Shown piece by piece: positions 1,415 through 19,767 of a DNA stretch of 64,000 bases (positions are counted from its first letter, which is position 1; each line of letters begins with the position of its first letter). Source of the stretch: Escherichia phage vB_EcoM_ULIM9. The stretch is from the sequence record OQ850288. One strand, written 5' to 3'. Under the pieces are notes generated by a model. That model saw only the letters and a program-made list of their open reading frames with translations, did no database searches and was not told the DNA's origin. Both the position numbers and the translations under genes were made by a program.

Positions 1415-1668
1415 ATTAAATTGCCAGTTAATGATAAGTGCATTTTATAGCCTTTTTTGGTAAACACGTTCACTTTACCGAGTGATTTTACACCTTTAAA
1501 AAGATTGTTTGAACTGCGTTTTAAGATTAGTTGTTTATCAGCCTTCACGCCCCATCTTACAGCAGATTGTTTTCCGTTGTCAACAACTTTTCCGCCTAAC
1601 TTTTTCGCCATGATGCGAGCGTCATCGCGAGTTTTTGCAGTAATTACAACGTTTTTGATAATAGCCAT
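1411..1668 (-). CDS. hypothetical small basic protein
   Basis: 85-aa ORF, Lys/Arg-rich; cassette upstream. Confidence 0.45.
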   Translation of the reverse strand: MAIIKNVVITAKTRDDARIMAKKLGGKVVDNGKQSAVRWGVKADKQLILKRSSNNLFKGVKSLGKVNVFTKKGYKMHLSLTGNLI

Positions 1669-1756
1669 TTTAGAATCTCCAATTTAGGATTGAGTGGTAA
1701 AGCTCTTTATCTGGGGCTTACTTTATCGAACTATAAGCCCCTTGTAAAGTACTTTA
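1669..1756 (-). repeat. intergenic cassette copy C: hairpin GGGGCTTA..TAAGCCCC (1713-1741), palindrome TAAAGTACTTTA (1745-1756)
   Basis: read directly; near-identical to copy B. Confidence 0.6.
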
Positions 1757-2137
1757 TCAGTTAATTTTGAAAATTGTCACATAACCATCACTACCGATTA
1801 TTTGAGACGCTCCAGCTTTCTCCACTGAATAGCCCATATTTTCAAGATGGTAAACAGCATCATCATAACCATATGCGCCACCTTGATAACGTCTCTTATC
1901 GCATCTTATCAGGTTTTTACCACGTCCAGCAAGCGCATTCAGTACGGCTTTTTCACTTGAAAGCGCACCATCTAACATGGTTGCCGTGTAATGGTTGATT
2001 CTGTTCCCGTTAATGTCATACTTAAAATTGAATGCGTGAACAACAATAATCTGACCTGTAAAATTCTCATCAAGTGATTTTTCCAGTGCGTTGCGGAAGT
2101 TGTCTTTATTGATGAATTTAGGTGCACGATATGCCAT
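1757..2137 (-). CDS. hypothetical protein
   Basis: 126-aa ORF; cassette D upstream with RBS. Confidence 0.5.
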   Translation of the reverse strand: MAYRAPKFINKDNFRNALEKSLDENFTGQIIVVHAFNFKYDINGNRINHYTATMLDGALSSEKAVLNALAGRGKNLIRCDKRRYQGGAYGYDDAVYHLENMGYSVEKAGASQIIGSDGYVTIFKIN

Positions 2138-2225
2138 TTTTGAATCTCCTAGTTTAAGGTTGTTGATAAAGCTCTTTATCTGGGGCTTAAGATATCAACT
2201 TTTAAACCCCTTGTAAAGTACTTTA
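2138..2225 (-). repeat. intergenic cassette copy D
   Basis: ttttgaatctcctagtttaagg...taaagctctttatctggggcttaagatatcaacttttaaacccc ttgtaaagtactttat. Confidence 0.55.
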
Positions 2226-2432
2226 TTAGATATCGTAGTAATAAACTGCTGTCTGTCTCGTAAATTTTTTAGTATTCCTTGTAAGATAACAATCAGAGTT
2301 GATTGCCGTTTCTACATAGTTGCAATAATCAGCTTCTGATATTCTAGACCATACGCCACAAATTTGCATGTAAAAACGTTTTACATTTGTGTTAACGTTA
2401 GTTGTAACCATCAATTCACGACCGTATAGCAT
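2226..2432 (-). CDS. hypothetical small protein
   Basis: 68-aa ORF; RBS-proximal cassette motif (tagattctcctagtttaagg) upstream. Confidence 0.4.
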   Translation of the reverse strand: MLYGRELMVTTNVNTNVKRFYMQICGVWSRISEADYCNYVETAINSDCYLTRNTKKFTRQTAVYYYDI

Positions 2433-2470
2433 TTTTAGATTCTCCTAGTTTAAGGCTATTGGGCTTGTCG

Positions 2471-2942
2471 CCCCGTCTGATGCAAATACTATAAAAACCC
2501 GTTCGAGGAGTCAATAAAAATTTTAAAAATATTTTTGGCAAAAATGTAATGAAACGGGCGCACGCGACTACCACAAAACAGAACTACAATCAAGAATTAT
2601 TTTTCAATCCGCTACAAATTTTTCTGTTGACTTCTCTTTTCAGATGTGGTAGCCTTGTGAGAAATGGCGACATCCCCACCTACACCCACCTACCTGCACA
2701 ATTCTAAAATGATTTTTCTTGCCCGACCTGAGCGGGGTCTGCACGTTTTGAAAATGAAAAAGCTCTTTGGAGATTACCTGCACAGTTTGAAAATGAATTT
2801 TCTCTTTGGAGTTCAAAATTCTCTCTACAGATTTCTGTCCAGAACACTACCTGCACAATCCTGAAATAAAAAAGCCCTCCTTACCTGAAAAATTTACCAG
2901 ATAAGAAAGGCTTAGTCTATTGTGAATATTCTACAGAGTTTC
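2471..2942. repeat. about 470-bp non-coding region with four iteron-like direct repeats (consensus TACCTGCACA-N-TGAAAATGA) at about 2690, 2738, 2777 and 2850
   Basis: direct reading; the only track ORF here (2664..2864, plus strand) is low-complexity and built from the repeats. Confidence 0.5.
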
Positions 2943-3728
2943 TTAGTTCTTTGCGTCTAAGAAGGTAACTCCCGGTGAAGAGAAAATTTCCTCAACATCC
3001 TCATCAGTTCTTGCATAGATATACGTATCTGCATCACTGCCAAATGTTACTGCAATCTTGTGATTGCTCTTCGACAGGTGGGTAACTAGAGCGTTACTTA
3101 GAGACATCTTTTCAACCGGAGGGTTACTTTGATGTATCTTGCCTTTTCTTCGTCTGAAGAGGGTAACTGCATCATTAGTGAATACTACTACACCTGAAAA
3201 GTATTCTGGTTCACAGTAGTTCTTCCAACCTGAGCGTAACTTGTGGTACATCTCTCCTTCATAGACATACAGATACACATCTACACTCTTCATCACCTGA
3301 TTAATGATGACTGTGACGGCTTGAGAGTCTAGTCCACCGATACCTGCACCAATCATAGGTAACCCAACTTTCTTCAACTGATTGACTTCACAGTATCTGT
3401 TAAGCTGTTTCAAAGATGACTCTAAAGCACTGTATCGGGCATCTTTACCAGTCTTAAGCTGAGTGTAAAGGTTAGCTATACGGCCTTGTTCTAAACGTGC
3501 TACAGAGAAATTGCCTAGTAAATTTTCACAGGGTTTGTGGCCTATACCACCTGCATACAGATAGACTTCTGTATCAGTCTCATATGCTTTTGGGTAAAGT
3601 TTAGAAATCTTGTCAGCGATACCTGCACCCATTAAATTCATACAGTTGCAACCGTGACCAATGATATCAAACTTACCTTTATCAAATGCGGAGAAGATGT
3701 CCCCATTGATGATTTTTACAATACCCAT
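2943..3728 (-). CDS. macro-domain protein (OARD1/TARG1-like ADP-ribose processing) with an extra C-terminal domain
   Basis: N-terminal NGDIF...DIIGHGCNCMNLMGAGIA and later GLPMIGAGIGGLD match the CxxxC-MGAGIA and glycine-rich loops of Poa1p/OARD1-type macro domains, as recalled. Confidence 0.6.
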   Translation of the reverse strand: MGIVKIINGDIFSAFDKGKFDIIGHGCNCMNLMGAGIADKISKLYPKAYETDTEVYLYAGGIGHKPCENLLGNFSVARLEQGRIANLYTQLKTGKDARYSALESSLKQLNRYCEVNQLKKVGLPMIGAGIGGLDSQAVTVIINQVMKSVDVYLYVYEGEMYHKLRSGWKNYCEPEYFSGVVVFTNDAVTLFRRRKGKIHQSNPPVEKMSLSNALVTHLSKSNHKIAVTFGSDADTYIYARTDEDVEEIFSSPGVTFLDAKN

Positions 3729-3929
3729 TTAGCATCTCTCCCAAGATTCTTTATCTTCTGAAGGTTTTACACGTTGCCCTTCGTGGTCTACCCAGATACA
3801 TCCACAACCTTCACAGATTACTGGCATTGCATAGCCAGCTTTAAAGTCATCTTCAGTGATAAGACCTTTTAAGTCACCTGTATCACGTCCGAACATTTCG
3901 ATAGAGCAGTCTTTGCAGAAGTCAGCCAT
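3729..3929 (-). CDS. small zinc-ribbon protein
   Basis: 66 aa with CxxC (CKDC) and CEGCGC motifs; stop abuts the start of the macro-domain gene. Confidence 0.45.
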   Translation of the reverse strand: MADFCKDCSIEMFGRDTGDLKGLITEDDFKAGYAMPVICEGCGCIWVDHEGQRVKPSEDKESWERC

Positions 3930-6458: not shown

Positions 6459-6984
6459 GATTTACCTTAGAAATGTTTGTTGCAAATTCACATTGGGCAA
6501 TAACTTTCATATTGTTATAGACATCTTGAGAGTATTTCTTAGCTTTAGGAATTTTGTACGAATACCCAGCATTATATGATGCTAAAACTTTTTGTAAAGT
6601 CTTCTTTGACTTCGGTTGACCATGTACCTTCGTCCAAAACTCAAGCTCTTTGTGTGTTTCCTTTGCAGCATAGTCAAAGTCTTTTAAGAGTTTCTTTTTA
6701 GCTACATTAGGACTGATTTTGTTACGCTTTACAACAGTCTTCAAGTGATTCTGGAAGATACCATAGTCATGGGTCTTTTTATTCTCTACCTTCAGACCTA
6801 ACTCTGACTCTTGTAAGGCTATAGCAGCTAGAGTGATACCCCAACCTTTACCCATATTATTCTCACCATACTGGTAAGCTTTTAACATGTTTACTTTTTG
6901 GCTAATTGATAGCTCTGGGCAGTCAACTGCATAAGATAAGTGTGCTGTAAACATTAAGCACAAACCTAGAATCAATTTCTTCAT
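6436..6984 (-). CDS. secreted lytic transglycosylase (SLT-domain)
   Basis: N-terminal signal peptide MKKLILGLCLMFTAHLSYA; ALQESELG...DYGIFQ resembles the SLT catalytic Glu-Ser and GLMQ-type motifs. Confidence 0.5.
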   Translation of the reverse strand: MKKLILGLCLMFTAHLSYAVDCPELSISQKVNMLKAYQYGENNMGKGWGITLAAIALQESELGLKVENKKTHDYGIFQNHLKTVVKRNKISPNVAKKKLLKDFDYAAKETHKELEFWTKVHGQPKSKKTLQKVLASYNAGYSYKIPKAKKYSQDVYNNMKVIAQCEFATNISKVNHEKIKKV

Positions 6985-7043
6985 TGGTTCTCCTGTTTAG
7001 TTTATCGTGACAACAATTATACAGCACTCTGCACAAAATACAA

Positions 7044-7069
7044 ATAAAAAAGGCCGCCGAAGCAGCCTT
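7044..7069 (-). terminator. intrinsic terminator (UUCG tetraloop)
   Basis: plus-strand aaaaaaGGCCGCcgaaGCAGCCtt; on the minus strand an 8-bp stem with one G-U pair, followed by a U-run. Confidence 0.55.
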
Positions 7070-7084
7070 TTAAGAAATTACTTA

Positions 7085-8194
7085 TTAGATTTCACGTTTA
7101 CGCTGAGAGATAAGTTCACCAGCAGTACCAACGATGACATGCAAAGCTTCAGTCTTGCCATCCCATGCTTTCAGTACTTTACGTTGATTATCAACGATTG
7201 CTGCAACTTCATAACGAGACGAGCGCATCTTCATATCGTTGTAATCAGTTGGTACGGATACAACGTCTCGTGGATGGACACGAACCTTCAGAATTGTATC
7301 ACCTGAGAAGTAACGAACATAATCCCAAGCACCAACGTGAAGACCTTGAGAGCAAGTCACGTTACGGTTATTATCAACCATCCAACGTGGCATTTCTACA
7401 ATGTTACCCAAATCATTAGGTACTTTGCAGGTGCGGGAGTCAACCAGCTTGCCTTCACGAGTAGAGACTTTCTTCCAACCAATGATGTAGCCTTCTTCAT
7501 CAATTTCAACATCAAGGTGAGATATGAATCCCCAAAGTTGTTCTACAGAATCTTTAGATGGGTTTTCCATCAGTTTTTCGAAGAACATTACAAGTCGTTC
7601 AAAACCTTTATCACCAGTCTTCATCATGTGAAGTATACGGTCAACCAGAGTAGAACGCATCTCAACAGCACCGTAGAATAGCTTATCACCTTTGATTGTG
7701 ATAGCTCCCTGCGTGAAGTTTTCGATAGACTTACGAATGTTCATCAGTTCAAAGGCTTTCTTGAACTCACCTTTCACAACATGAACTACAATCTCTTGAT
7801 AGTTCGGATGAGTAGATTCAACAATTTCAGACTCTGAACCGTAAGTCATAATTACAGAGTCACCAGTAATCATATACTCAATCTTGTCATCTTTCTGCAT
7901 AGCTTCGTGCAGTTTATTTACTGGAGCTTTCTGTACAGCCTCTTTAACAACCTTTTTAACTGGCTTGTCAGCTTTCTTTTTAAAGGTCTTAGCAACTTGC
8001 TTCAAAGTCTTCGTAGCTGGTGTAGAAGTTACCTTCTTATTCCCTTTTAATGTTGCTTCATGACGCTCTACAGCACGACCGACTGAACGGGTTGAAGTAT
8101 TAAATTTCTGTGCAATAGCTGTTTTAGTCAGCTTACCTTCTTTAACCAGTTTGTAAATTTCTGCGTCAATCTGTGCTTTAGTTTTAGTAGTCAT
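7085..8194 (-). CDS. hypothetical protein with N-terminal helix-turn-helix
   Basis: 369 aa; N-terminal KLTKTAIAQKFNTSTRSVGRAV HTH-like segment. Confidence 0.45.
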   Translation of the reverse strand: MTTKTKAQIDAEIYKLVKEGKLTKTAIAQKFNTSTRSVGRAVERHEATLKGNKKVTSTPATKTLKQVAKTFKKKADKPVKKVVKEAVQKAPVNKLHEAMQKDDKIEYMITGDSVIMTYGSESEIVESTHPNYQEIVVHVVKGEFKKAFELMNIRKSIENFTQGAITIKGDKLFYGAVEMRSTLVDRILHMMKTGDKGFERLVMFFEKLMENPSKDSVEQLWGFISHLDVEIDEEGYIIGWKKVSTREGKLVDSRTCKVPNDLGNIVEMPRWMVDNNRNVTCSQGLHVGAWDYVRYFSGDTILKVRVHPRDVVSVPTDYNDMKMRSSRYEVAAIVDNQRKVLKAWDGKTEALHVIVGTAGELISQRKREI

Positions 8195-8238
8195 CTTATT
8201 ACTCTCTCTTGTTAGTTAATAAATCATTTTGTGAGGAT

Positions 8239-8268
8239 ATTCTAAGGGGCTTCAAAGCCCCTTGTCAA
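8239..8268 (-). promoter_or_regulatory. sigma70-like promoter TTGACA-18-TAGAAT with GC hairpin in the spacer
   Basis: minus strand reads TTGACAaggggctttgaagccccTTAGAAT upstream of gene 7085..8194. Confidence 0.5.
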
Positions 8269-8273
8269 ACACT

Positions 8274-9095
8274 TTAATCGTAAACTGTAGTTCCTTCTGG
8301 AACACACTTCACATCAAAACCTAAGAACTTACTCACTTCGATGGGTGACACTTTATTCCAATCTAAATGGGAAAGCAAGAAGTTTTCTTGTTTTCTTTTT
8401 GAAAGGTAGTTTGTCACCTTAATAACCATACGGTCACCAGCTTTCTTAATTTTCTTGTAAAGCTTTGTATCGTTGTCAAGACAATCTTCCAAAGTTTTCA
8501 ACACACTAACAGTGTAAGTGTATGCAAATGGTGCAGCAACATACTGGATTTTACCAAACATTGCCTCTACAGCCTCTTCATTACCTTCTAGGAAGATAGT
8601 TTTGTTTGTATCCCGTGAATAGCAATAGCCACGAGAAATCTTCCTGTTATTGAACGTAAAGTTTCTGGCAATAATCCAGCTACTTGTAAGGTCAAGAATA
8701 CCATTCATGTAGATGCGTGTCATATACCTGTTATGATTAATCCAATGAACATCAGTTAAGCTGTCGTTCAAGAGTTTCTCATCTACTTCAATCCAGTCTT
8801 CTGGTATCTTTTTCCAATTTGCTTTTCGGAAAACATAGACTGTCTTTCCAATAACATTAGCAACTGACTTAGCTACATCTTCTGGGGATGAGCAAAAACA
8901 TTCACCATCAACTGTGTCACCAATTGCCTTAATGTAAAGCTGAGGTTCTTCAATTGTATCAAAGTCCTCTGAAACCTCTTTATAGGAAGCTACACCTTCT
9001 GCTGGAACAGCTTTCCAGAGTTTTACAACACCTCTTACAGCTTCTTTACGCTGGTAATGGTGCTCCTTATCAGACATTTTCACAATCTTTAACAA
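8274..9095 (-). CDS. hypothetical protein (possible rIIB-like partner of the upstream GHKL ATPase)
   Basis: 273-aa ORF immediately downstream of the GHKL ATPase gene; assignment by synteny only. Confidence 0.35.
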   Translation of the reverse strand: MLKIVKMSDKEHHYQRKEAVRGVVKLWKAVPAEGVASYKEVSEDFDTIEEPQLYIKAIGDTVDGECFCSSPEDVAKSVANVIGKTVYVFRKANWKKIPEDWIEVDEKLLNDSLTDVHWINHNRYMTRIYMNGILDLTSSWIIARNFTFNNRKISRGYCYSRDTNKTIFLEGNEEAVEAMFGKIQYVAAPFAYTYTVSVLKTLEDCLDNDTKLYKKIKKAGDRMVIKVTNYLSKRKQENFLLSHLDWNKVSPIEVSKFLGFDVKCVPEGTTVYD

Positions 9096-9130
9096 ACTTT
9101 TATCAAGTTTGTGCAGATTGATTAAGTCAT

Positions 9131-10639
9131 CTAACTCTTTTCAGTCGAGAATACAAAGACAATACCATTGTATCTGTGAAACAGACTAGACTCACTTGCA
9201 TAGTCTCGACATGCACCACGCAAGATTTGGTTACGCCCAACAGTCTTCTCAGTGCCATTTTTATTTCGACGGTCATTAATCACGAACAAAAACTGTCCAA
9301 TCTGGCTTTTGCGCATTGCACCAAAGATGTTGAACATGCTCGCCTCTTGAGTGTAGGATAGTGCTGTTGCACGAATCTTACTCTCTAAAGAGTTAAACTT
9401 GACATAAGCAACTGGATTGTATAGGTAGTCCACTTTAGGGATGTTGTTTCCTTTACTGTCAACCTTAATATTACCTTTGCCGTCACGTTCATAGATGACT
9501 GAGCCGTCTTCTGCGTAGATAATTCCACGACGAATGTTTAGTAATTCTTCTTCCAGAGAATCAAGCTTAACGCCTCCCCACTCTAGCTTTGGACACACAG
9601 CATTAAACATCTCTCGTGAGTTCAAACGTAACTCAGCATAAGCCTGTGCAGCATCCATGAGTGTAGGTTGGCTATTAACTTTCTTGATAACATCCTTTGT
9701 AATTGCTTCAGTTATCTTTTTAGTAGCCTCAATGATAACATTTTTTGTCGTGTCATTCATCTGCAATGCTTCACGAGAAGCTGCAATAGCAACTGAACCA
9801 ATAGGCATGTAGATGTTTACAAGGTCTACGCTCCTACGGAAAAATTCTGGCAAGACTTTGAAGAAATCATCACCAAGTAATGCTTCCATGTTAACAGGGT
9901 ATGCAATGTTACCCATCACCACATTAAACTCTGTCCTGTTACCACTAGAACGCCAGCTTTGCTTATGAATCATGGCATCATAAACACCTTCTTCACGGGC
10001 AATGACGTTCATATCTGCTAATACATCGTCATACTCGATATTGCTTTCTGGTTTTACAGCAAAGTATGAGTATACGTGACCAGCTTCTTCAAAGAATTTT
10101 GAGATACGATGGTCAGCAACTGCTACACGTACAGCTAAGCCATTAGGTTCCTTTGTTGGGTTGGTAGTCAGCTTAGTCACTTGAGGAATACCATTCTCAA
10201 GATAAACAGAGTACTTATTAACAACACCGTCAACATAGCTAGATACTGTGAATGACTGAGCAATTGCAAATGGGGATTTTGAGCCGATACCCATTGCACC
10301 AATGTAATCATTAGAGTCATTCTTCGTAGAAGCCCCGTAGTTTAGGTACAAACTCATAACTTTATCATGAGTCAATCCAGTTCCAAAATCACGGACTTCA
10401 AAGTAAGGCTCAAATCGAGTAGGCAAATGCACATGGAACGGGATGTTTTCTTTTCCAGCTTCTTTCTGAGCATCTACTGCGTTACATGACAGTTCACGAA
10501 TCACTGCCCTTTCTTTAAACGTGTATACACCAGAACTCAAAAGGCTGAACATTTCAGGTGTCATTGTAATCTGTGCTTGAGACGTCTCTAAAGAAGTTGA
10601 ACTCTTAATCACTTCTGCGTGGTCGTTTACCATGCGCAT
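9131..10639 (-). CDS. GHKL/Bergerat-fold ATPase domain protein (rIIA-like)
   Basis: IRELSCNAVDA (N box ExxxNAxDA), VRDFGTGL (DxGxG) and GAMGIGSKS (G2 box) in order. Confidence 0.55.
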   Translation of the reverse strand: MRMVNDHAEVIKSSTSLETSQAQITMTPEMFSLLSSGVYTFKERAVIRELSCNAVDAQKEAGKENIPFHVHLPTRFEPYFEVRDFGTGLTHDKVMSLYLNYGASTKNDSNDYIGAMGIGSKSPFAIAQSFTVSSYVDGVVNKYSVYLENGIPQVTKLTTNPTKEPNGLAVRVAVADHRISKFFEEAGHVYSYFAVKPESNIEYDDVLADMNVIAREEGVYDAMIHKQSWRSSGNRTEFNVVMGNIAYPVNMEALLGDDFFKVLPEFFRRSVDLVNIYMPIGSVAIAASREALQMNDTTKNVIIEATKKITEAITKDVIKKVNSQPTLMDAAQAYAELRLNSREMFNAVCPKLEWGGVKLDSLEEELLNIRRGIIYAEDGSVIYERDGKGNIKVDSKGNNIPKVDYLYNPVAYVKFNSLESKIRATALSYTQEASMFNIFGAMRKSQIGQFLFVINDRRNKNGTEKTVGRNQILRGACRDYASESSLFHRYNGIVFVFSTEKS

Positions 10640-10667
10640 AATACTTTCCTCTCAGTTTACTGTTAAA

Positions 10668-10844
10668 TTACTTATTAAACATTTTACCAGAACCACCACA
10701 CATAGGGCAACATCCTGCCCTTATGTACCCCTCTCCATTACAGTAGTCACATTTTTTGTGCTCTGCAAAGTACTTACAAAGGAGGTAAACAAATACTGCT
10801 ACACTACCAAGTGACAGTAAAATTTCTATCCAATATGCTTGCAT
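10668..10844 (-). CDS. small membrane-anchored zinc-finger protein (unannotated 58-aa ORF)
   Basis: own translation MQAYWIEILLSLGSVAVFVYLLCKYFAEHKKCDYCNGEGYIRAGCCPMCGGSGKMFNK: TM helix plus two CxxCxGxG motifs; GAGG RBS; starts inside the 3' end of 10826..11161. Confidence 0.3.
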   Translation of the reverse strand: MQAYWIEILLSLGSVAVFVYLLCKYFAEHKKCDYCNGEGYIRAGCCPMCGGSGKMFNK

Positions 10845-11161
10845 GACTCACCTCTCATATTCTTGTAAAGGATAAAGCTTCTGTCATGAACGATACTTGT
10901 AGATACTGCAAAGTTACTTTCAAGCATCTGTTTGTTTGGATTGTAGAAGCTTTCTTTAAACTCGTCAAGTGCAAATTGGTGATGTTGTGGAAGACCTTTT
11001 ACACAAACCTTTATTGTGATTGCTGCTGCAACCTTGCCAGCCAGTTCTTCTTTAGCTGCTACTAAAATTTTGTTAAGGAACTTATGACCATCTTCATGCT
11101 TCTTGATGTTCTCCCAACGTTCTTCTAAGACAATGTTGATGTTCATTTCTTTGATTTTCAT
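10826..11161 (-). CDS. hypothetical protein
   Basis: 111-aa ORF. Confidence 0.45.
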   Translation of the reverse strand: MKIKEMNINIVLEERWENIKKHEDGHKFLNKILVAAKEELAGKVAAAITIKVCVKGLPQHHQFALDEFKESFYNPNKQMLESNFAVSTSIVHDRSFILYKNMRGESCKHIG

Positions 11162-11178
11162 AGTCTTCTCCAGAAATT

Positions 11179-11199
11179 AAAAAGGCTCCCGTAGGAGCC
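11179..11199 (-). terminator. intrinsic terminator (GGCTCC-uacg-GGAGCC plus U-run)
   Basis: plus-strand aaaaaGGCTCCcgtaGGAGCC 3' of the Nampt-like gene. Confidence 0.6.
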
Positions 11200-11214
11200 T
11201 CTTATCATATACTT

Positions 11215-12996
11215 TTAAAGCTGCTTGTCAATATTATTTCGAATATCACCAAGCGTTGTGTAACCGAACTGCTCAGAGTCACTAAAGACTAAACGTAAAG
11301 CACAAACTGGGTGGTCAAGTGCATCTGCAAAACTCTGGAATCCATAGCCATCTACAGCTTTCAGCTTATCACCATCCCACATAGGTGCTACACCACCAAA
11401 GGCAGATTTCTTAACACCACTATCTGTTTTAGGGTCTTTTGCAAGCATAATCTCTTTACCACCAATGCTTGCAAGAGTTGCTTTGACAGCAAATGCAAAG
11501 GTGTCACGAGTCATGTACTGGTAAGTGTAAGAGCCTACACCAAACACTACGTTAGAGCTTGCAAAACCCATTTCATACAGACGCTTCAGGATTTCGTTTG
11601 CACGTTCCAGTGTGATAGAGTCACCATAGATAAGGCCGATATGCTCATCCAGTACCTTAAACCCTTTAGAGTTAAGAGTTCCCCCAAAGATGTTGTACAG
11701 TGTCTTAATAGCTCCATCAATCTCCGCTACAGGGCGTGTTACAACGTTTGCAGAGCCAACCATATAAGCATTCTTCAACATCACTGTATCAGCAACTTCA
11801 AAGTCTTCTCTGTCAACAACCATTTCGTAGCCTTCTGACAGTAGCCATCCAGCAATACCATAGTTGACGTTTTCAAGCTTCATGTTCAGAACAGCATTCA
11901 ACATTGTGTCACTGGCTTCCAGCTTGCTTAGGTGCTCGTAATAAGCCTTCTTAGCACATTCTAAGTGGATTGCTTTATAACCTGTGACAATATGTACAGG
12001 GTCTCCAGAGTCAGGACGAATTACCAGTTTACCGTCACGTTCCATAATTTCTTTACGAAGTGCTGGTAAGATTTCTGACACAGTTCTCCAGAAGTTATAA
12101 GTATCTGAAACAATACTTGCAATACCAGTTGGGTAAGTTTCTGTTAAGAAACGACGGAAGGTTTGTAACTCACCTTTAAAGCGTCTTTCTTCTTCAATCA
12201 ACTCATTACCACCTTCCCAAGCAATGTTTGCACACATTACAGAGTGCTCAGTGGCTGGTACAGAGCTACCAATATCAGAGATTGGGTAAGACTGTCCATA
12301 GATTCGTTTAGCCGTATACACAGCAGGGAAGCTATCAGTTCCTTTAAAGCTGGTTAAGTGACCTACAGCATTAAATGCGTCATCAGTAAAGCCGGACATA
12401 CCACGCATAGCAAAGTCGTGGCACTGATAAGGTAAATGTAGGTCGTTGTCACAAGTAAGGTCAGCCCACTTCTTACAGATGCGTTTGTAATGCAATGCAA
12501 TAGTTGCAATGGTACAAGCTTTCCAAATCTCAGCAGAGAAAGCATCTTCCAGATAACCTGCTACCCAATGGAAACCTGAAACAGTGTTCTGGAAGACAAT
12601 CATTGGGACACGCATAGGGACAACTGTACCTTCTTCTACAGCGTATACTTCAACTGGTAGATAGCCTAAGTCGTGAAGTGCTTCCCAATGCTCTCGACCG
12701 ATAGCATCTTTACCCAGAACACCATTCATGACTTCTAAGATTTCATCAATGGCTTCTTTTTTATCACGTTCAAAGAAAGTGGCGTTCCAGTGGTCTATCA
12801 AGTAATCTTTAACGAAACGTTGAATACCAAAAGCCACTACACCATCAATTGCTAAGGGGCTGTTAAACCATTTATCACTACGTGGTGTCAGGTTCAACAT
12901 AAGATATTGCGTAGCATCTGGATACTGATATATATGTGATGCCTTGTAAGCATCTGCATTAAGACCTGCTGGTACTGCGTAAAGTGACTTACTCAT
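11215..12996 (-). CDS. nadV: nicotinamide phosphoribosyltransferase-family protein (Nampt/NadV-like; candidate Namat of an NAD+ reconstitution pathway)
   Basis: DAYKASHIYQYP, CHDFAMRGMSG...HLTSFKGTDS and IRPDSGDP align with conserved Nampt segments as recalled; 593 aa. Confidence 0.85.
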   Translation of the reverse strand: MSKSLYAVPAGLNADAYKASHIYQYPDATQYLMLNLTPRSDKWFNSPLAIDGVVAFGIQRFVKDYLIDHWNATFFERDKKEAIDEILEVMNGVLGKDAIGREHWEALHDLGYLPVEVYAVEEGTVVPMRVPMIVFQNTVSGFHWVAGYLEDAFSAEIWKACTIATIALHYKRICKKWADLTCDNDLHLPYQCHDFAMRGMSGFTDDAFNAVGHLTSFKGTDSFPAVYTAKRIYGQSYPISDIGSSVPATEHSVMCANIAWEGGNELIEEERRFKGELQTFRRFLTETYPTGIASIVSDTYNFWRTVSEILPALRKEIMERDGKLVIRPDSGDPVHIVTGYKAIHLECAKKAYYEHLSKLEASDTMLNAVLNMKLENVNYGIAGWLLSEGYEMVVDREDFEVADTVMLKNAYMVGSANVVTRPVAEIDGAIKTLYNIFGGTLNSKGFKVLDEHIGLIYGDSITLERANEILKRLYEMGFASSNVVFGVGSYTYQYMTRDTFAFAVKATLASIGGKEIMLAKDPKTDSGVKKSAFGGVAPMWDGDKLKAVDGYGFQSFADALDHPVCALRLVFSDSEQFGYTTLGDIRNNIDKQL

Positions 12997-13010: not shown

Positions 13011-13502
13011 TTAGTTATGTCTTGCAAACTCACCATGAAGTTCTATTCGCTTTTTAATTACAGCTTCTTTTGCTTCTTCTACCGTTTTAAATCTTCCACA
13101 AAAGTATTCTTTATGGTAAAGCATGACTCTTGCTTTGTAAAGACCTGTTTGTTTACAAAAACTTACACCCTTCACACCAGTTTTATTATTCTTGTGTATA
13201 CCCCTATTCCTCTGATTTTGTGACTTTGTGCTAAGTCTTAAATTCTCCAGCTTATTATTAGCTTTATCAAGGTCTATGTGGTCTATCTCATATCCACTTG
13301 GTATCTCACCTCCAGACATAATCCATGCAATATTATGTGCATAGTACCTCTTCTTATTTATCTGGACTTGGATATAACCCTTCTTAGACCTTGTGCCAGC
13401 CACATTACCAGCAATAGCGGTACTGCAAAGGGTTACTCTCCAAATTAATAAACCTGTATCTGGTTCATATATTAGGTATTTTTCAAAATAACCCTTATTC
13501 AT
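13011..13502 (-). CDS. HNH homing endonuclease (paralog 1)
   Basis: YEPDTGLLIWR N-terminal motif and ELHGEFARHN C-terminus shared with the ORFs at 26050 and 36137; HxxxxDxxxxN-type core (EIDHIDLDKANN). Confidence 0.7.
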   Translation of the reverse strand: MNKGYFEKYLIYEPDTGLLIWRVTLCSTAIAGNVAGTRSKKGYIQVQINKKRYYAHNIAWIMSGGEIPSGYEIDHIDLDKANNKLENLRLSTKSQNQRNRGIHKNNKTGVKGVSFCKQTGLYKARVMLYHKEYFCGRFKTVEEAKEAVIKKRIELHGEFARHN

Positions 13503-17622: not shown

Positions 17623-19767
17623 TTACATAGAAACTCTGTCACGAATCTCAGCAATTTTTGCATCGTTCATTCGGGATTCACCTTTAATCTTAGTCCATCC
17701 AAGATACCCACACACCCTGTTAATCACAGAGATATCATGTGAATGGCAAACCTCACATTCTTCAACATCAGCCTTTGGTCTGTTACCACAATGTTCACAG
17801 ATTGCTAAGTCGAAGTTAAGTCCCTGATAGAAACCTTTCAACATCCCTCTTGTAATACAACTTTTAAGTGCTGATAAGTTTTCTGGATTAGCTACCCTTA
17901 CATACTGGATTCTGCCGCCTCTACAGATATGGAAGAAGGGTTCTTCTAAGTCCTGCTTCTCAAATGGTGTAATATCTGCTGCAACATTCATATGGAAACT
18001 GTTTGTAAAGTATTCCTTGTCAGAGACACCTTTAATAACGCCAAACATATCTCTGAACTGTTTTAGCTGAGTTCCACAAAGTGATTCTGCTGGAGTGCCA
18101 TAGACTGCATATAAGAAGCCATCTTCATTTTTAAACTCTTCAGTTTTCATGTTGATGTATTCCAGAACATCGTATGCAAAACTACAGCTTCCGACTTCAT
18201 GAAGTCGTTTACCTTCAGCAAGAACAGATAGCTCATCAAGAGCAGTAACCCCAAAAGAAGCTGTGAAGGATTTCACAATATCCCAACCAACCCTGTCAGT
18301 AGGTTTCTTATTCCCTTTGTACAGACCACCCTGTGTGAATGCAAGAGGGTTAGAACTTGCTGGCATATTAGCAATCATTTCGTAACGTTTCTTGTGGAAG
18401 CTGCGAATCATCTCTAGGTACTTATCAAGCTCTTTCCAGAAGTCTAAACCATTCTCTTTAGAATACTGGTAAATCATTGGTAAGTTCAAAGATACAGCAC
18501 CAATGTTAGCACGACCAACGTAGAACTCTTCTCCTTCCTCATTAAGATATGGAGACAAGAAAGCTCTGCAACCCATCGGTGAAATAACCTTACCAGAACG
18601 CTCAAAAGCCTCTGCTACAGCACCATGACCAGATACACTTAAGAAGTCTGGATACATTGCTTTAGAGCAACACTCAATAGCTTTACTGTACAGGTGACTT
18701 TGACAGATATTTTCATCATGTCTCTTCTGGTCATAAATATAAACCAGTTTAGGGAATACAACAGGTTTCTTGCTCTTACCTTGACCATTCATACGAACAT
18801 CTAGGAGGGTACTTGCAATCATATATTGCAGTCGGTTATCTTCATTGGACATATCTGAGTCAAGTAACCCGAATGTCAAAGTTGTGAATGCAAAATCCCC
18901 ACGGCTACAAGGTACAGTGTTTAGTTTCATTTCAAGTGACTGGAAACCTTGAGTCAGTTCAATCTGTAGCTGCTCCATGACATAATTGTGGTAATGTTCT
19001 TTAGGAATACCATAAGATGCTGCTTTCTCAGCATGATAGCGTAGAGACTTCTTAGCATACGGTACAAGTACCTTATCAATCTCTGCTAAAGTAAAACCAC
19101 CAAATTGCTGTGCAGTTGCTGAAAGTACTACGTCACCAATAACCTGCAACGCTGACAGTACAGATTTAGGTTCACAGTATTCGATGCCAGACATTTCAAA
19201 GCCACCTTTCAGTACTTTACCAATGTCAAACAGGCAACAGTTAATCCCACCAAAAATTAGGTCTCTTAAGTCATGGATGTAGATAAAACCTTTTTCAATG
19301 GCTTCCAGTTCATCTGGTGTTAAGTGGTACTGTTTAAAGATTTCTTTAGTCAGATAACCACGAATAATTGAACCTTTTGTAGAAATTAAACTGCTGTCAA
19401 AATTAGCGTTTTCTCGGTCACCTAAGAAGAGTGTATCTTTAGTCTTCTGGTAGAGTTCGTCCCAATTTTGAGCAACCTCTTTACGGTAATTTCTATATGT
19501 TGAGTAAGACTCATAAATCTCGTGATTGACTTCTGCCAAAGCACCCTCAACAATACTGTGAATATCATTTACAGAAATTAGTAAATTATTCTGCTTAGTG
19601 GACTTTACCAGAATCCTCATAAATGCTGACTCAAGGGCTTGAGTAACATCTGGTGGAAGCTCTTTATAACCAACTCTGTTAGCTGACTTTGTGACTGCTA
19701 CTAAAACTTTTTTGATATCAGGTTCTTCGAGTGAGCCATTCTTTTTAATAATCTGTACTTTGTTCAT
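17623..19767 (-). CDS. nrdD: anaerobic (class III) ribonucleoside-triphosphate reductase
   Basis: 714 aa; C-terminal Cys cluster CEHCGN...CEVC followed by glycyl-radical motif RVCGYLG. Confidence 0.9.
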   Translation of the reverse strand: MNKVQIIKKNGSLEEPDIKKVLVAVTKSANRVGYKELPPDVTQALESAFMRILVKSTKQNNLLISVNDIHSIVEGALAEVNHEIYESYSTYRNYRKEVAQNWDELYQKTKDTLFLGDRENANFDSSLISTKGSIIRGYLTKEIFKQYHLTPDELEAIEKGFIYIHDLRDLIFGGINCCLFDIGKVLKGGFEMSGIEYCEPKSVLSALQVIGDVVLSATAQQFGGFTLAEIDKVLVPYAKKSLRYHAEKAASYGIPKEHYHNYVMEQLQIELTQGFQSLEMKLNTVPCSRGDFAFTTLTFGLLDSDMSNEDNRLQYMIASTLLDVRMNGQGKSKKPVVFPKLVYIYDQKRHDENICQSHLYSKAIECCSKAMYPDFLSVSGHGAVAEAFERSGKVISPMGCRAFLSPYLNEEGEEFYVGRANIGAVSLNLPMIYQYSKENGLDFWKELDKYLEMIRSFHKKRYEMIANMPASSNPLAFTQGGLYKGNKKPTDRVGWDIVKSFTASFGVTALDELSVLAEGKRLHEVGSCSFAYDVLEYINMKTEEFKNEDGFLYAVYGTPAESLCGTQLKQFRDMFGVIKGVSDKEYFTNSFHMNVAADITPFEKQDLEEPFFHICRGGRIQYVRVANPENLSALKSCITRGMLKGFYQGLNFDLAICEHCGNRPKADVEECEVCHSHDISVINRVCGYLGWTKIKGESRMNDAKIAEIRDRVSM

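Follow-up and report, generated by a model that had tools for sequence, protein, structure and literature searches.

One rIIA gene, very probably split by a single-base deletion, accounts for two tandem reading frames of Escherichia phage vB_EcoM_ULIM9

Two tandem reading frames occupy positions 8274-10639 of the window (the whole 64,000-nucleotide stretch of Escherichia phage vB_EcoM_ULIM9, record OQ850288, that was analyzed), which raises the question of whether they represent two genes or one. An earlier note, made from the sequence alone, had taken the first for a GHKL-type ATPase and the second for its partner in an rIIB-like position, the pair possibly forming an rIIA/rIIB-like module against abortive infection. 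The ORF listing confirmed both on the minus strand, one of 502 aa with an ATG start (9131-10639) and one of 273 aa with a TTG start (8274-9095). The locus is indeed an rII locus, and the 502-aa product a GHKL-type rIIA (PHROG 612), but the 273-aa ORF is not rIIB. We put the probability at about 93% that this is the rIIA-rIIB locus of a Felixounavirus and that both ORFs are a single rIIA, broken where a run of five A has lost one. The features of the gene are as follows.

8274..10639, minus strand: frameshifted rIIA allele, 2,366 nt (2,367 nt, 788 aa, in relatives)
10645..10653, minus strand: Shine-Dalgarno region of rIIA (GAGAGGAAA, read from the sequence), 5 nt ahead of the ATG
9131..10639, minus strand: 5′ ORF, encodes native rIIA residues 1-501 and ends with a single aberrant Ser before the stop
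9138..9141, minus strand: run of four A on the coding strand (TTTT on the plus strand), five A in relatives
9131..9133, minus strand: premature TAG of the frameshift product, ACT GAA AAG AGT TAG (sequence read and translation)
8274..9095, minus strand: 3′ remnant of rIIA (native residues 516-788), its reading frame unchanged

Both ORFs matched the same RIIA family, PHROG 612, but in different parts of the profile: the 502-aa ORF at positions 1-432 of 725 (E 2.5e-161; five more RIIA PHROGs also matched), the 273-aa ORF at the C-terminal positions 461-717 only (E 1.5e-20). In close relatives within Felixounavirus (95-97% nucleotide identity), the span 8274-10639 corresponds to one CDS of 2,361-2,367 nt (UAB_Phi87, FSL SP-107, KhF2, and Bas63), the 788-aa product of which is 98.2-98.6% identical to the 502-aa ORF over residues 1-501 and 96-98% identical to the 273-aa ORF over residues 516-788. 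The 273-aa ORF showed no RIIB similarity in PHROGs or Pfam and no relevant match in NCBIfam, and none of its TTG, GTG, or ATG starts was preceded by a Shine-Dalgarno-like sequence. Its exact product was absent from a collection of 15 billion proteins. The 502-aa product, in contrast, is identical to WPJ69513.1, a GenBank entry of Escherichia phage vB_EcoM_ULIM9 that already bears the name "rIIA lysis inhibitor." From its sequence, the 273-aa ORF is thus read as the out-of-frame 3′ part of rIIA and not as an independent gene. Upstream, only 28 nt separate the stop of a 58-aa ORF from rIIA.

In the global alignment with the relatives, the only gap across rIIA was a single nucleotide, five A being reduced to four; the site reads CTGAAAAGAG here versus CTGAAAAAGAG in UAB_Phi87, FSL SP-107, KhF2, LF110P1, and Bas63. 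Since one A is missing, the frame shifts and a stop is reached two codons on; a TGA at 9143, in frame upstream of the 273-aa ORF, overlaps the A-run. When one A was inserted in silico, an ORF of 788 aa without internal stops resulted, 98.0% identical to the rIIA of Bas63. That the two ORFs are one gene is concluded because they share PHROG 612, correspond to a single CDS in the relatives, differ from it by a one-nucleotide gap, and give a clean ORF upon repair. With a length difference of exactly one base across the gene, insertion of an intron, intein, or homing endonuclease was rejected as the source of the split. Members of the RIIA family consist of one continuous chain of ∼725-790 aa including the C-terminal region; here, the encoded chain ends after 502 codons, and the sequence of the C-terminal region persists in another frame, a continuous chain being obtained only after restoring one A. 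The suggestion that a protein shorter than T4 rIIA might be a distinct ATPase therefore did not hold: its shortness stems from the premature stop, and the 502/273-aa arrangement is, judged by sequence, a disrupted allele of an RIIA family member rather than a shorter family.

The real partner of rIIA is, by sequence, found beyond 8274-10639, together with the transcription signals of the locus.

7085..8194, minus strand: true rIIB, intact, 369 aa (five RIIB PHROGs)
8239..8268, minus strand: sigma70-like promoter TTGACA-18-TAGAAT, 11/12 consensus, after the rIIA stop and ahead of the rIIB start
7048..7071, minus strand: intrinsic-terminator-like hairpin with T-run, after rIIB at the end of the module (KhF2 carries a Rho-independent terminator annotation there)
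11204..11231, minus strand: sigma70-like promoter TTGACA-16-TATGAT, 11/12 consensus, preceding rIIA and two ORFs of the same orientation (111 and 58 aa)

The ORF at 7085-8194 matched RIIB PHROGs 609, 3803, 36818, 2886, and 11221 (best E 8.3e-89), corresponds in length and position to the annotated rIIB of UAB_Phi87, SP-107, and KhF2, and is 82.7% identical to that of Bas63. It starts 80 nt 3′ of the rIIA stop on the same strand, so that rIIB is the next gene, as is typical of the RIIA family, and it was not among the split ORFs in a protein-level test. The promoter-like site ahead of it contains a GC hairpin (AGGGGCTTTGAAGCCCCT) in its spacer and is, together with this hairpin, conserved in Bas63, where only the loop of the hairpin differs; it probably makes expression of rIIB independent of the rIIA frameshift. 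The site at 11204..11231 is likely the promoter of the transcript carrying rIIA. A sigma70-like promoter of its own near the ORF pair, as proposed before, gained weak support from an overall enrichment of such matches (20 versus 9.8 ± 3.1 in shuffled sequence), but the near-consensus sites are not directly upstream of the rIIA start.

The ordered N box, DxGxG, and G2 box ascribed to the 502-aa protein were borne out when 29 homologues with identities as low as 27% were aligned: E49/N53/D56 of the N box, D84/G86 of DxGxG (G88 nearly so), and G114/G117/G119 of the G2 box were invariant. The profile built from this alignment matched ATPase domains of TRAP1/Hsp90, including the N-terminal domain of TRAP1 (E 1.2e-5), all significant PDB profile matches were Hsp90-family proteins, and 19 of the 29 homologues matched PF13589. 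The protein itself matched neither GHKL nor HSP90 families in Pfam, and single-sequence phmmer against the PDB returned noise only; the fold assignment rests on the homologues, the profile, NCBIfam, and the structure model. The NCBIfam HSP90 family model was matched at residues 30-134 only (domain-level E 9.4e-12), with 44 bits versus a cut-off of 455, so the protein does not count as a true Hsp90. Foldseek with the AlphaFold model (pLDDT 81.7) gave Hsp90-family structures exclusively as top matches (E 4.7e-15; 50 of 50 among the matches listed). The ORF comprises a GHKL ATPase domain of Hsp90-like type, followed by a region resembling a middle domain. It shares with the chaperones TRAP1, HtpG, and GRP94 the ATP-binding motifs of the Bergerat fold and, by prediction, the arrangement of an N-terminal and a middle domain; in contrast, identity in structural alignments was only 11-17%, and the C-terminal third of RIIA had no Hsp90 match. 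The model therefore points to a resemblance in fold, not to membership in the Hsp90 family. A fragment of MutL or of a type II topoisomerase (GyrB/ParE) was rejected, the best sequence and fold matches being to the Hsp90 family instead. The earlier note had named the absence of rIIB similarity in the second ORF, combined with a GHKL family other than rII such as these two, as the outcome that would speak against it; profile and structure searches returned the former, whereas the GHKL assignment was to rII.

The rIIA-rIIB locus of FelixO1-like phages is already known and annotated in hundreds of genomes; the ULIM9 locus was compared with loci of the same genus (Bas63, UAB_Phi87, FelixO1, wV8, and ULIM3). 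Bas63 (Escherichia phage JohannRWettstein, MZ501086; bas63_0084 annotated as rIIA, bas63_0085 as rIIB) and its relatives share with it the order NAMPT, small ORFs, rIIA, rIIB, a 182-aa ORF, and polynucleotide kinase; they differ in that rIIA is a single 788-aa ORF, in Bas63 as in 59 of the 60 relatives sampled. T4-type rII of the Tevenvirinae, which counters RexAB of phage lambda, has the same order, rIIA then rIIB, and belongs to the same PHROG families. In its N-terminal GHKL part, the ULIM9 protein aligns colinearly with residues 22-307 of RIIA from the T4-like phage HY01 (32% identity over 306 residues, E 4e-38), whereas the C-terminal third is similar by profile only: BLASTP between the 273-aa ORF and T4-like RIIA gave no significant pairwise match (best E 0.13), and this ORF was therefore identified via the Felixounavirus orthologues and the PHROG profile. 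The proteins also differ in size, Felixounavirus RIIA and RIIB having 788 and 369 aa, compared with 725 aa for RIIA of HY01 and 312 aa for RIIB of T4.

In both lineages, the rII genes are conditionally essential against an abortive-infection system. Insertions in rIIA or rIIB of T4 were depleted only in the presence of RexAB (bioRxiv 10.1101/2025.11.20.689424), and deletion of g84 or g85 from Bas63 reduced plating on QatABCD by 1e4-1e5, which complementation restored (bioRxiv 10.1101/2024.10.10.617714); the defense shown to be countered in the Felixounavirus lineage is thus QatABCD, not RexAB. The BASEL collection, which carries a note on r1589, calls the rII locus "poorly understood." By analogy, the N and middle domains of RIIA would form a GHKL ATPase resembling Hsp90, and its C-terminal third would be specific to the family; together with RIIB, the protein would protect the infected cell from membrane-targeting abortive-infection systems; as in the homologues, both genes should be dispensable on permissive hosts and required when RexAB (T4) or QatABCD (Bas63) is present. 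In ULIM9, translation from the normal rIIA start would yield native residues 1-501, one wrong residue, and then TAG; the 273-aa stretch, still in the original frame, would have no ribosome-binding site, and rIIB would stay intact with a promoter-like site of its own. Because the C-terminal 287 residues are lost, the allele is predicted to be a null or a strong hypomorph; the truncated protein keeps the Hsp90-like N and M domains, so partial activity might persist. With such an allele, ULIM9 should plate normally on its isolation host and fail on hosts of the RexAB or QatABCD type. It is comparable in this respect to the classical T4 rII frameshift mutants (Benzer; Crick and Brenner), in which a single-base frameshift in an rII cistron is likewise compatible with viability on permissive hosts, and to the frameshift and nonsense mutants in rIIB of T6, which escape CARD-gasdermin defense and are equally viable there with an inactivated rII cistron. 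Unlike these, the ULIM9 lesion lies in a Felixounavirus rIIA and arose without known selection, and no phenotype is on record.

Whether the missing A is a property of the phage or of the record has to be weighed. We hold it for probable that the A was truly lost by slippage, not long ago, and that the loss became fixed while the phage was purified from single plaques. For ULIM9, a stock taken through three rounds of single-plaque purification was sequenced on Illumina MiSeq, and SPAdes produced the assembly (PMC10223428). According to the counts of synonymous and nonsynonymous codon differences 3′ of the break (22:10 and 11:5, compared with 34:11 in a control pair of intact genes), the lesion is most likely recent; relaxed selection on the 3′ part was rejected as an interpretation, the nonsynonymous share (∼31%) being not clearly above the 24% of the control pair. 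The main competitor is a sequencing or assembly artefact, by which the phage would truly have five A, its 788-aa rIIA would be normal, and one A would be missing only from the deposited consensus; this we consider unlikely, at odds of perhaps one in five. Homopolymers are the classic place for indel miscalls, the part of rIIA downstream of the lesion is undamaged, and the A4 allele was found in no other sequence (0 matches in IMG/VR and in JGI metagenome contigs, compared with 9-10 matches of the A5 allele in IMG/VR). Furthermore, another Felixounavirus record, MET-P1-301, has also lost an A from a run of five in rIIA, but at another run, which could mean that such errors recur; rIIA was in one piece in 59 of the 60 sampled records of the Felixounavirus group. 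Conversely, homopolymers of 5 bases are rarely miscalled in MiSeq/SPAdes consensus sequences, and the repaired rIIA alone has 13 runs (A/T of at least 5, G/C of at least 4). Moreover, rIIA was the sole split real gene among ∼60 conserved shared ORFs of at least 120 aa in the 64 kb, as determined by the protein-level split-ORF test, which was used because the whole-window blastn indel list was noisy, divergent patches producing pairs of gaps that cancelled each other. NCBI and the independent Logan read assemblies are both listed as sources of the identical 502-aa product, the Logan origin being a source label only; the search for encoding contigs did not retrieve one for it. Finally, rII genes are dispensable in the laboratory and are therefore expected targets of real inactivating mutations.

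A genuine loss could, in addition, have been selected for, which would make ULIM9 a natural rIIA-null Felixounavirus, but we regard this as doubtful, at best. By analogy with CARD-gasdermin systems, which sense RIIB, the F18 ETEC strain A-I-210, on which the phage was isolated, could have a defense that senses RIIA/RIIB activity; alternatively, an r-type plaque could have been favored during purification. If so, the independent loss in MET-P1-301 would suggest that the A5 runs of rIIA are recurrent slippage-prone off-switches, which trade counter-defense for escape from trigger-sensing defenses.

Quite improbable is that the split is functional, full-length RIIA being made by a −1 slip at A-AAG, or two subunits by reinitiation at TTG 9095 or ATG 9077. 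At the lesion, the 0 frame reads GAA AAG (candidate −1 frameshift site, ACTGAAAAGAGTTAG), and a slip of tRNA-Lys from AAG to AAA followed by GAG would restore the exact WT sequence; in E. coli, ribosomes are known to shift readily at A-AAG (dnaX). The RNA past the site can fold into a stable structure that begins within a few nucleotides (ΔG −19.6 kcal/mol, z −2.9, 1/200 shuffles), and start codons follow 36-54 nt past the stop. However, the site falls short of a complete X XXY YYZ heptamer, the folded stretch is plain coding sequence that intact alleles have as well, and rIIA is single-frame in all sampled relatives but one, so that nothing has evolved for recoding here. Reinitiation, in turn, would have to do without a Shine-Dalgarno sequence before the starts of the 3′ ORF and would give a version devoid of native residues 502-515. 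Because a −1 slip would restore the exact WT sequence and structured RNA lies just downstream, the broken A4 allele may nevertheless be leaky.

A separate shorter GHKL ATPase with an rIIB-like partner, forming a two-gene counter-defense module within 8274-10639, has next to no chance of being correct: the ORFs do lie in tandem on one strand, the first with GHKL motifs, but the PHROG matches, the one-nucleotide gap that separates both from one intact gene, the mapping of the second to rIIA residues 516-788 without any RIIB match, the repair test, and the position of the real rIIB at 7085-8194 refute it.

What should be recorded here is one broken gene and a real rIIB rather than a new ATPase module of two genes, and the discovery value is small, the locus being widely annotated and the 502-aa product deposited as rIIA. 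ULIM9 is a candidate for phage therapy against ETEC, probably with a null allele of a counter-defense gene, and a narrower effective host range is thus predicted on strains with QatABCD- or Rex-like systems. It also represents a ready natural rIIA mutant, useful for studying rII function in Felixounavirus alongside its intact sister phages ULIM3 and ULIM8; the rIIA of ULIM3 was among the intact ones in the sampled Felixounavirus-group records.

The 502-aa and the 273-aa ORF of the earlier note, both present and both on the minus strand, are separated by 35 nt and lie in different reading frames. In PHROGs, the former matched the RIIA family phrog_612 at profile positions 1-432 of 725 (E 2.5e-161); the latter matched positions 461-717 of the same family (E 1.5e-20) and no RIIB family. 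In the Felixounavirus relatives UAB_Phi87, FSL SP-107, KhF2 and Bas63, the span of both ORFs is annotated as a single rIIA CDS of 2,361-2,367 nt, followed by rIIB. At the protein level, residues 1-501 of the relatives' rIIA correspond to the 502-aa ORF (98.2-98.6% identity) and residues 516-788 to the 273-aa ORF (96.3-98.2% identity); thus, judged by these alignments, the two ORFs are a single gene cut in two. The notion that the 273-aa ORF is an rIIB-like partner is therefore abandoned; the true rIIB is the next ORF downstream, outside 8274-10639.

7085-8194, minus strand: rIIB, 369 aa (five RIIB PHROGs, best E 8.3e-89)
8274-9095, minus strand: 3′ ORF (rIIA remainder), 273 aa, TTG start
9131-10639, minus strand: 5′ ORF (rIIA), 502 aa, ATG start
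9133-9131, minus strand: premature TAG stop, from reading the sequence
9138-9141, minus strand: A4 run (the lesion), from alignment with relatives

When the rIIA genes were aligned globally, the sole length difference between the window and three relatives was CTG-AAAA-GAG versus CTG-AAAAA-GAG on the coding strand. With one A lost from A5, the frame reads ACT GAA AAG AGT TAG, and translation ends at 9133-9131. Inserting one A resulted in a 2,367-nt ORF of 788 aa without internal stops, the product of which was 98.0% identical to Bas63 rIIA. The apparent "distinct shorter ATPase" hence owes its shortness to the premature stop. What lies at 8274-10639 is a frameshifted allele within a well-known gene pair, rIIA/rIIB, that is already annotated. 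The whole window belongs to a FelixO1-like myovirus (genus Felixounavirus); over the 3.9-kb region, more than 200 records of phages from Escherichia, Salmonella and Shigella hosts are 95-97% identical to it.

The frameshift is probably a real mutation, fixed in the plaque-purified stock (probability roughly 0.7). That A5 is really present and one A was dropped from the deposited sequence appears unlikely. Consensus errors by Illumina are uncommon at 5-base runs. ULIM9 went through three successive single-plaque purifications before its 86,759-bp genome was obtained with Illumina MiSeq and SPAdes (PMC10223428). All ORFs of 120 aa or more were taken from two complete relatives (UAB_Phi87 and LF110P1) and compared with those of the window: ∼60 had counterparts, and among real genes only rIIA was split. 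Two further ORFs matched in part, one of them antisense within the capsid gene, the other the portal gene, which the end of the window truncates. Homopolymer errors are therefore not widespread in the assembly. An identical 502-aa product is deposited in GenBank (WPJ69513.1, "rIIA lysis inhibitor [Escherichia phage vB_EcoM_ULIM9]") on an 86,759-bp contig, with Logan read assemblies also named as source; of the 1,411 members of its 90% cluster, 15 are listed, 11 of them 788 aa long. The allele with A4 had no exact match in IMG/VR or JGI metagenome contigs, that with A5 had 9-10 in IMG/VR, and rIIA was a single tblastn piece in 59 of 60 records sampled evenly from 257 of the Felixounavirus group. 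Synonymous to nonsynonymous codon differences 3′ of the break (22:10 and 11:5), compared with an intact-intact control pair (34:11), gave no sign of decay, so the event would be recent. Functional recoding or a two-piece RIIA protein is highly improbable: a −1 slip would be productive only at the lesion itself, where a shift of tRNA-Lys from AAG to AAA would restore precisely the wild-type protein, and the 88 nt of RNA downstream (9050-9137, minus strand) are predicted to fold more stably than shuffled controls (dG −19.6 kcal/mol, z −2.9, 1/200 shuffles), but the slippery heptamer is incomplete and the folded stretch is coding sequence common to the intact alleles.

The Escherichia phage MET-P1-301 (PV700625.1; Felixounavirus) has independently lost one A from another of the A5 runs in rIIA. 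There, the lesion at nt 918 of rIIA (gene at 1501-3866 of the extracted locus) leaves ORFs of 308 and 461 aa, annotated "protein rIIA" and "hypothetical protein".

The GHKL motifs reported for the 502-aa ORF are real: among 29 aligned homologues, the most distant 27% identical, E49/N53/D56 of the N box, D84/G86 of DxGxG and G114/G117/G119 of the G2 box were invariant, and G88 nearly so. Searched against the PDB, the profile of these homologues matched N-terminal domains of TRAP1/Hsp90 (E 1.2e-5), with the N box and DxGxG in register; 19 of the 29 matched Pfam HATPase_c_3. To the NCBIfam HSP90 family model, the window protein matched only as a domain (44 bits, E 9.4e-12, the cut-off being 455 bits). 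Its AlphaFold2 model (mean pLDDT 81.7) has an Hsp90-like fold, all best 50 PDB matches being Hsp90-family structures (E down to 4.7e-15; 400-595 aligned columns, taking in ATPase and middle domains). These profile and structure matches are to neither MutL nor a topoisomerase. The assignment as rIIA holds also against the T4-like RIIA of phage HY01 (725 aa), with which the 502-aa ORF is colinear over 306 N-terminal residues (32% identity, E 4e-38). The C-terminal piece has no pairwise-detectable similarity to HY01 RIIA. Bas63 RIIA/B were said to share >80% sequence homology with T4 RIIA/B (bioRxiv 10.1101/2024.10.10.617714); yet the repaired window rIIA, 98% identical to that of Bas63, reaches only the above 32% N-terminal identity to a T4-like RIIA, and pairwise comparison of its C-terminal third gave nothing significant.

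Because 287 C-terminal residues are missing, the window allele should be null or strongly hypomorphic. RIIA would contribute an Hsp90-like ATPase and would need its C-terminal third as well. The T4 rIIA-rIIB fusion deletion r1589 keeps B function and loses A function. T4 can dispense with rIIA and rIIB when RexAB is absent; when it is present, insertions in them are strongly depleted (bioRxiv 10.1101/2025.11.20.689424; BASEL). In Bas63, like the window phage a Felixounavirus, deletion of g84 or g85 (bas63_0084 and bas63_0085, named rIIA and rIIB in GenBank) makes plating drop by 1e4-1e5 when the host carries QatABCD, and complementation restores it (bioRxiv 10.1101/2024.10.10.617714). A CARD-gasdermin system, which RIIB alone suffices to trigger, is escaped by T6 mutants with a frameshift or nonsense mutation in rIIB. 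By homology, the window module is probably the orthologue of that of Bas63, with the same conditional counter-defence role.

Sigma70-like matches were enriched within 6900-11400 (20 versus 9.8 ± 3.1 in shuffles).

11231-11204, minus strand: near-consensus sigma70-like site TTGACA-16-TATGAT, upstream of the 111-aa and 58-aa ORFs that precede rIIA in the same orientation
8268-8239, minus strand: near-consensus sigma70-like site TTGACA-18-TAGAAT, in the 80-nt rIIA-rIIB gap
7071-7048, minus strand: terminator-like hairpin after rIIB (KhF2 annotates a terminator at the same site)

Thus, rIIB probably has its own promoter, and polarity of the rIIA frameshift should therefore not silence it. The 18-nt spacer of the site before rIIB contains a perfect GC hairpin, kept in Bas63 with only the loop differing. 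A terminator hairpin (11203-11180, minus strand) lies directly 3′ of the upstream site, so a transcript from there would start within the terminator's 5′ arm. The rIIA start is preceded by a good Shine-Dalgarno, GAGAGGAAA; none was found before the TTG, GTG and ATG starts of the 273-aa ORF. Directly 5′ of rIIA, at only 28 nt, ends a conserved 58-aa ORF (10668-10844, minus strand) with a hydrophobic N-terminus and a DnaJ-like zinc motif, CxxCxGxG...CxxCxGxG (phrog_3931, E 1.5e-33; Pfam DnaJ_CXXCXGXG weak). It overlaps the preceding 111-aa ORF (phrog_4262), and synteny of the two with rIIA holds in every relative seen.

Elsewhere in the window, a 163-aa homing-endonuclease ORF (HNH_3 plus AP2-like; Pfam HNH_3 E 5.5e-19) lies between NAMPT and prsA (13011-13502, minus strand), where the window has ∼500 extra bases and UAB_Phi87 and LF110P1 have no sequence. 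Conversely, nrdD (17623-19767, minus strand) is an uninterrupted 714-aa ORF (NRDD, E 2.7e-114), whereas that of UAB_Phi87 and Bas63 is split by a ∼745-bp insertion with a homing endonuclease (annotated as a joined CDS in Bas63); the window nrdD is therefore the insertion-free allele.
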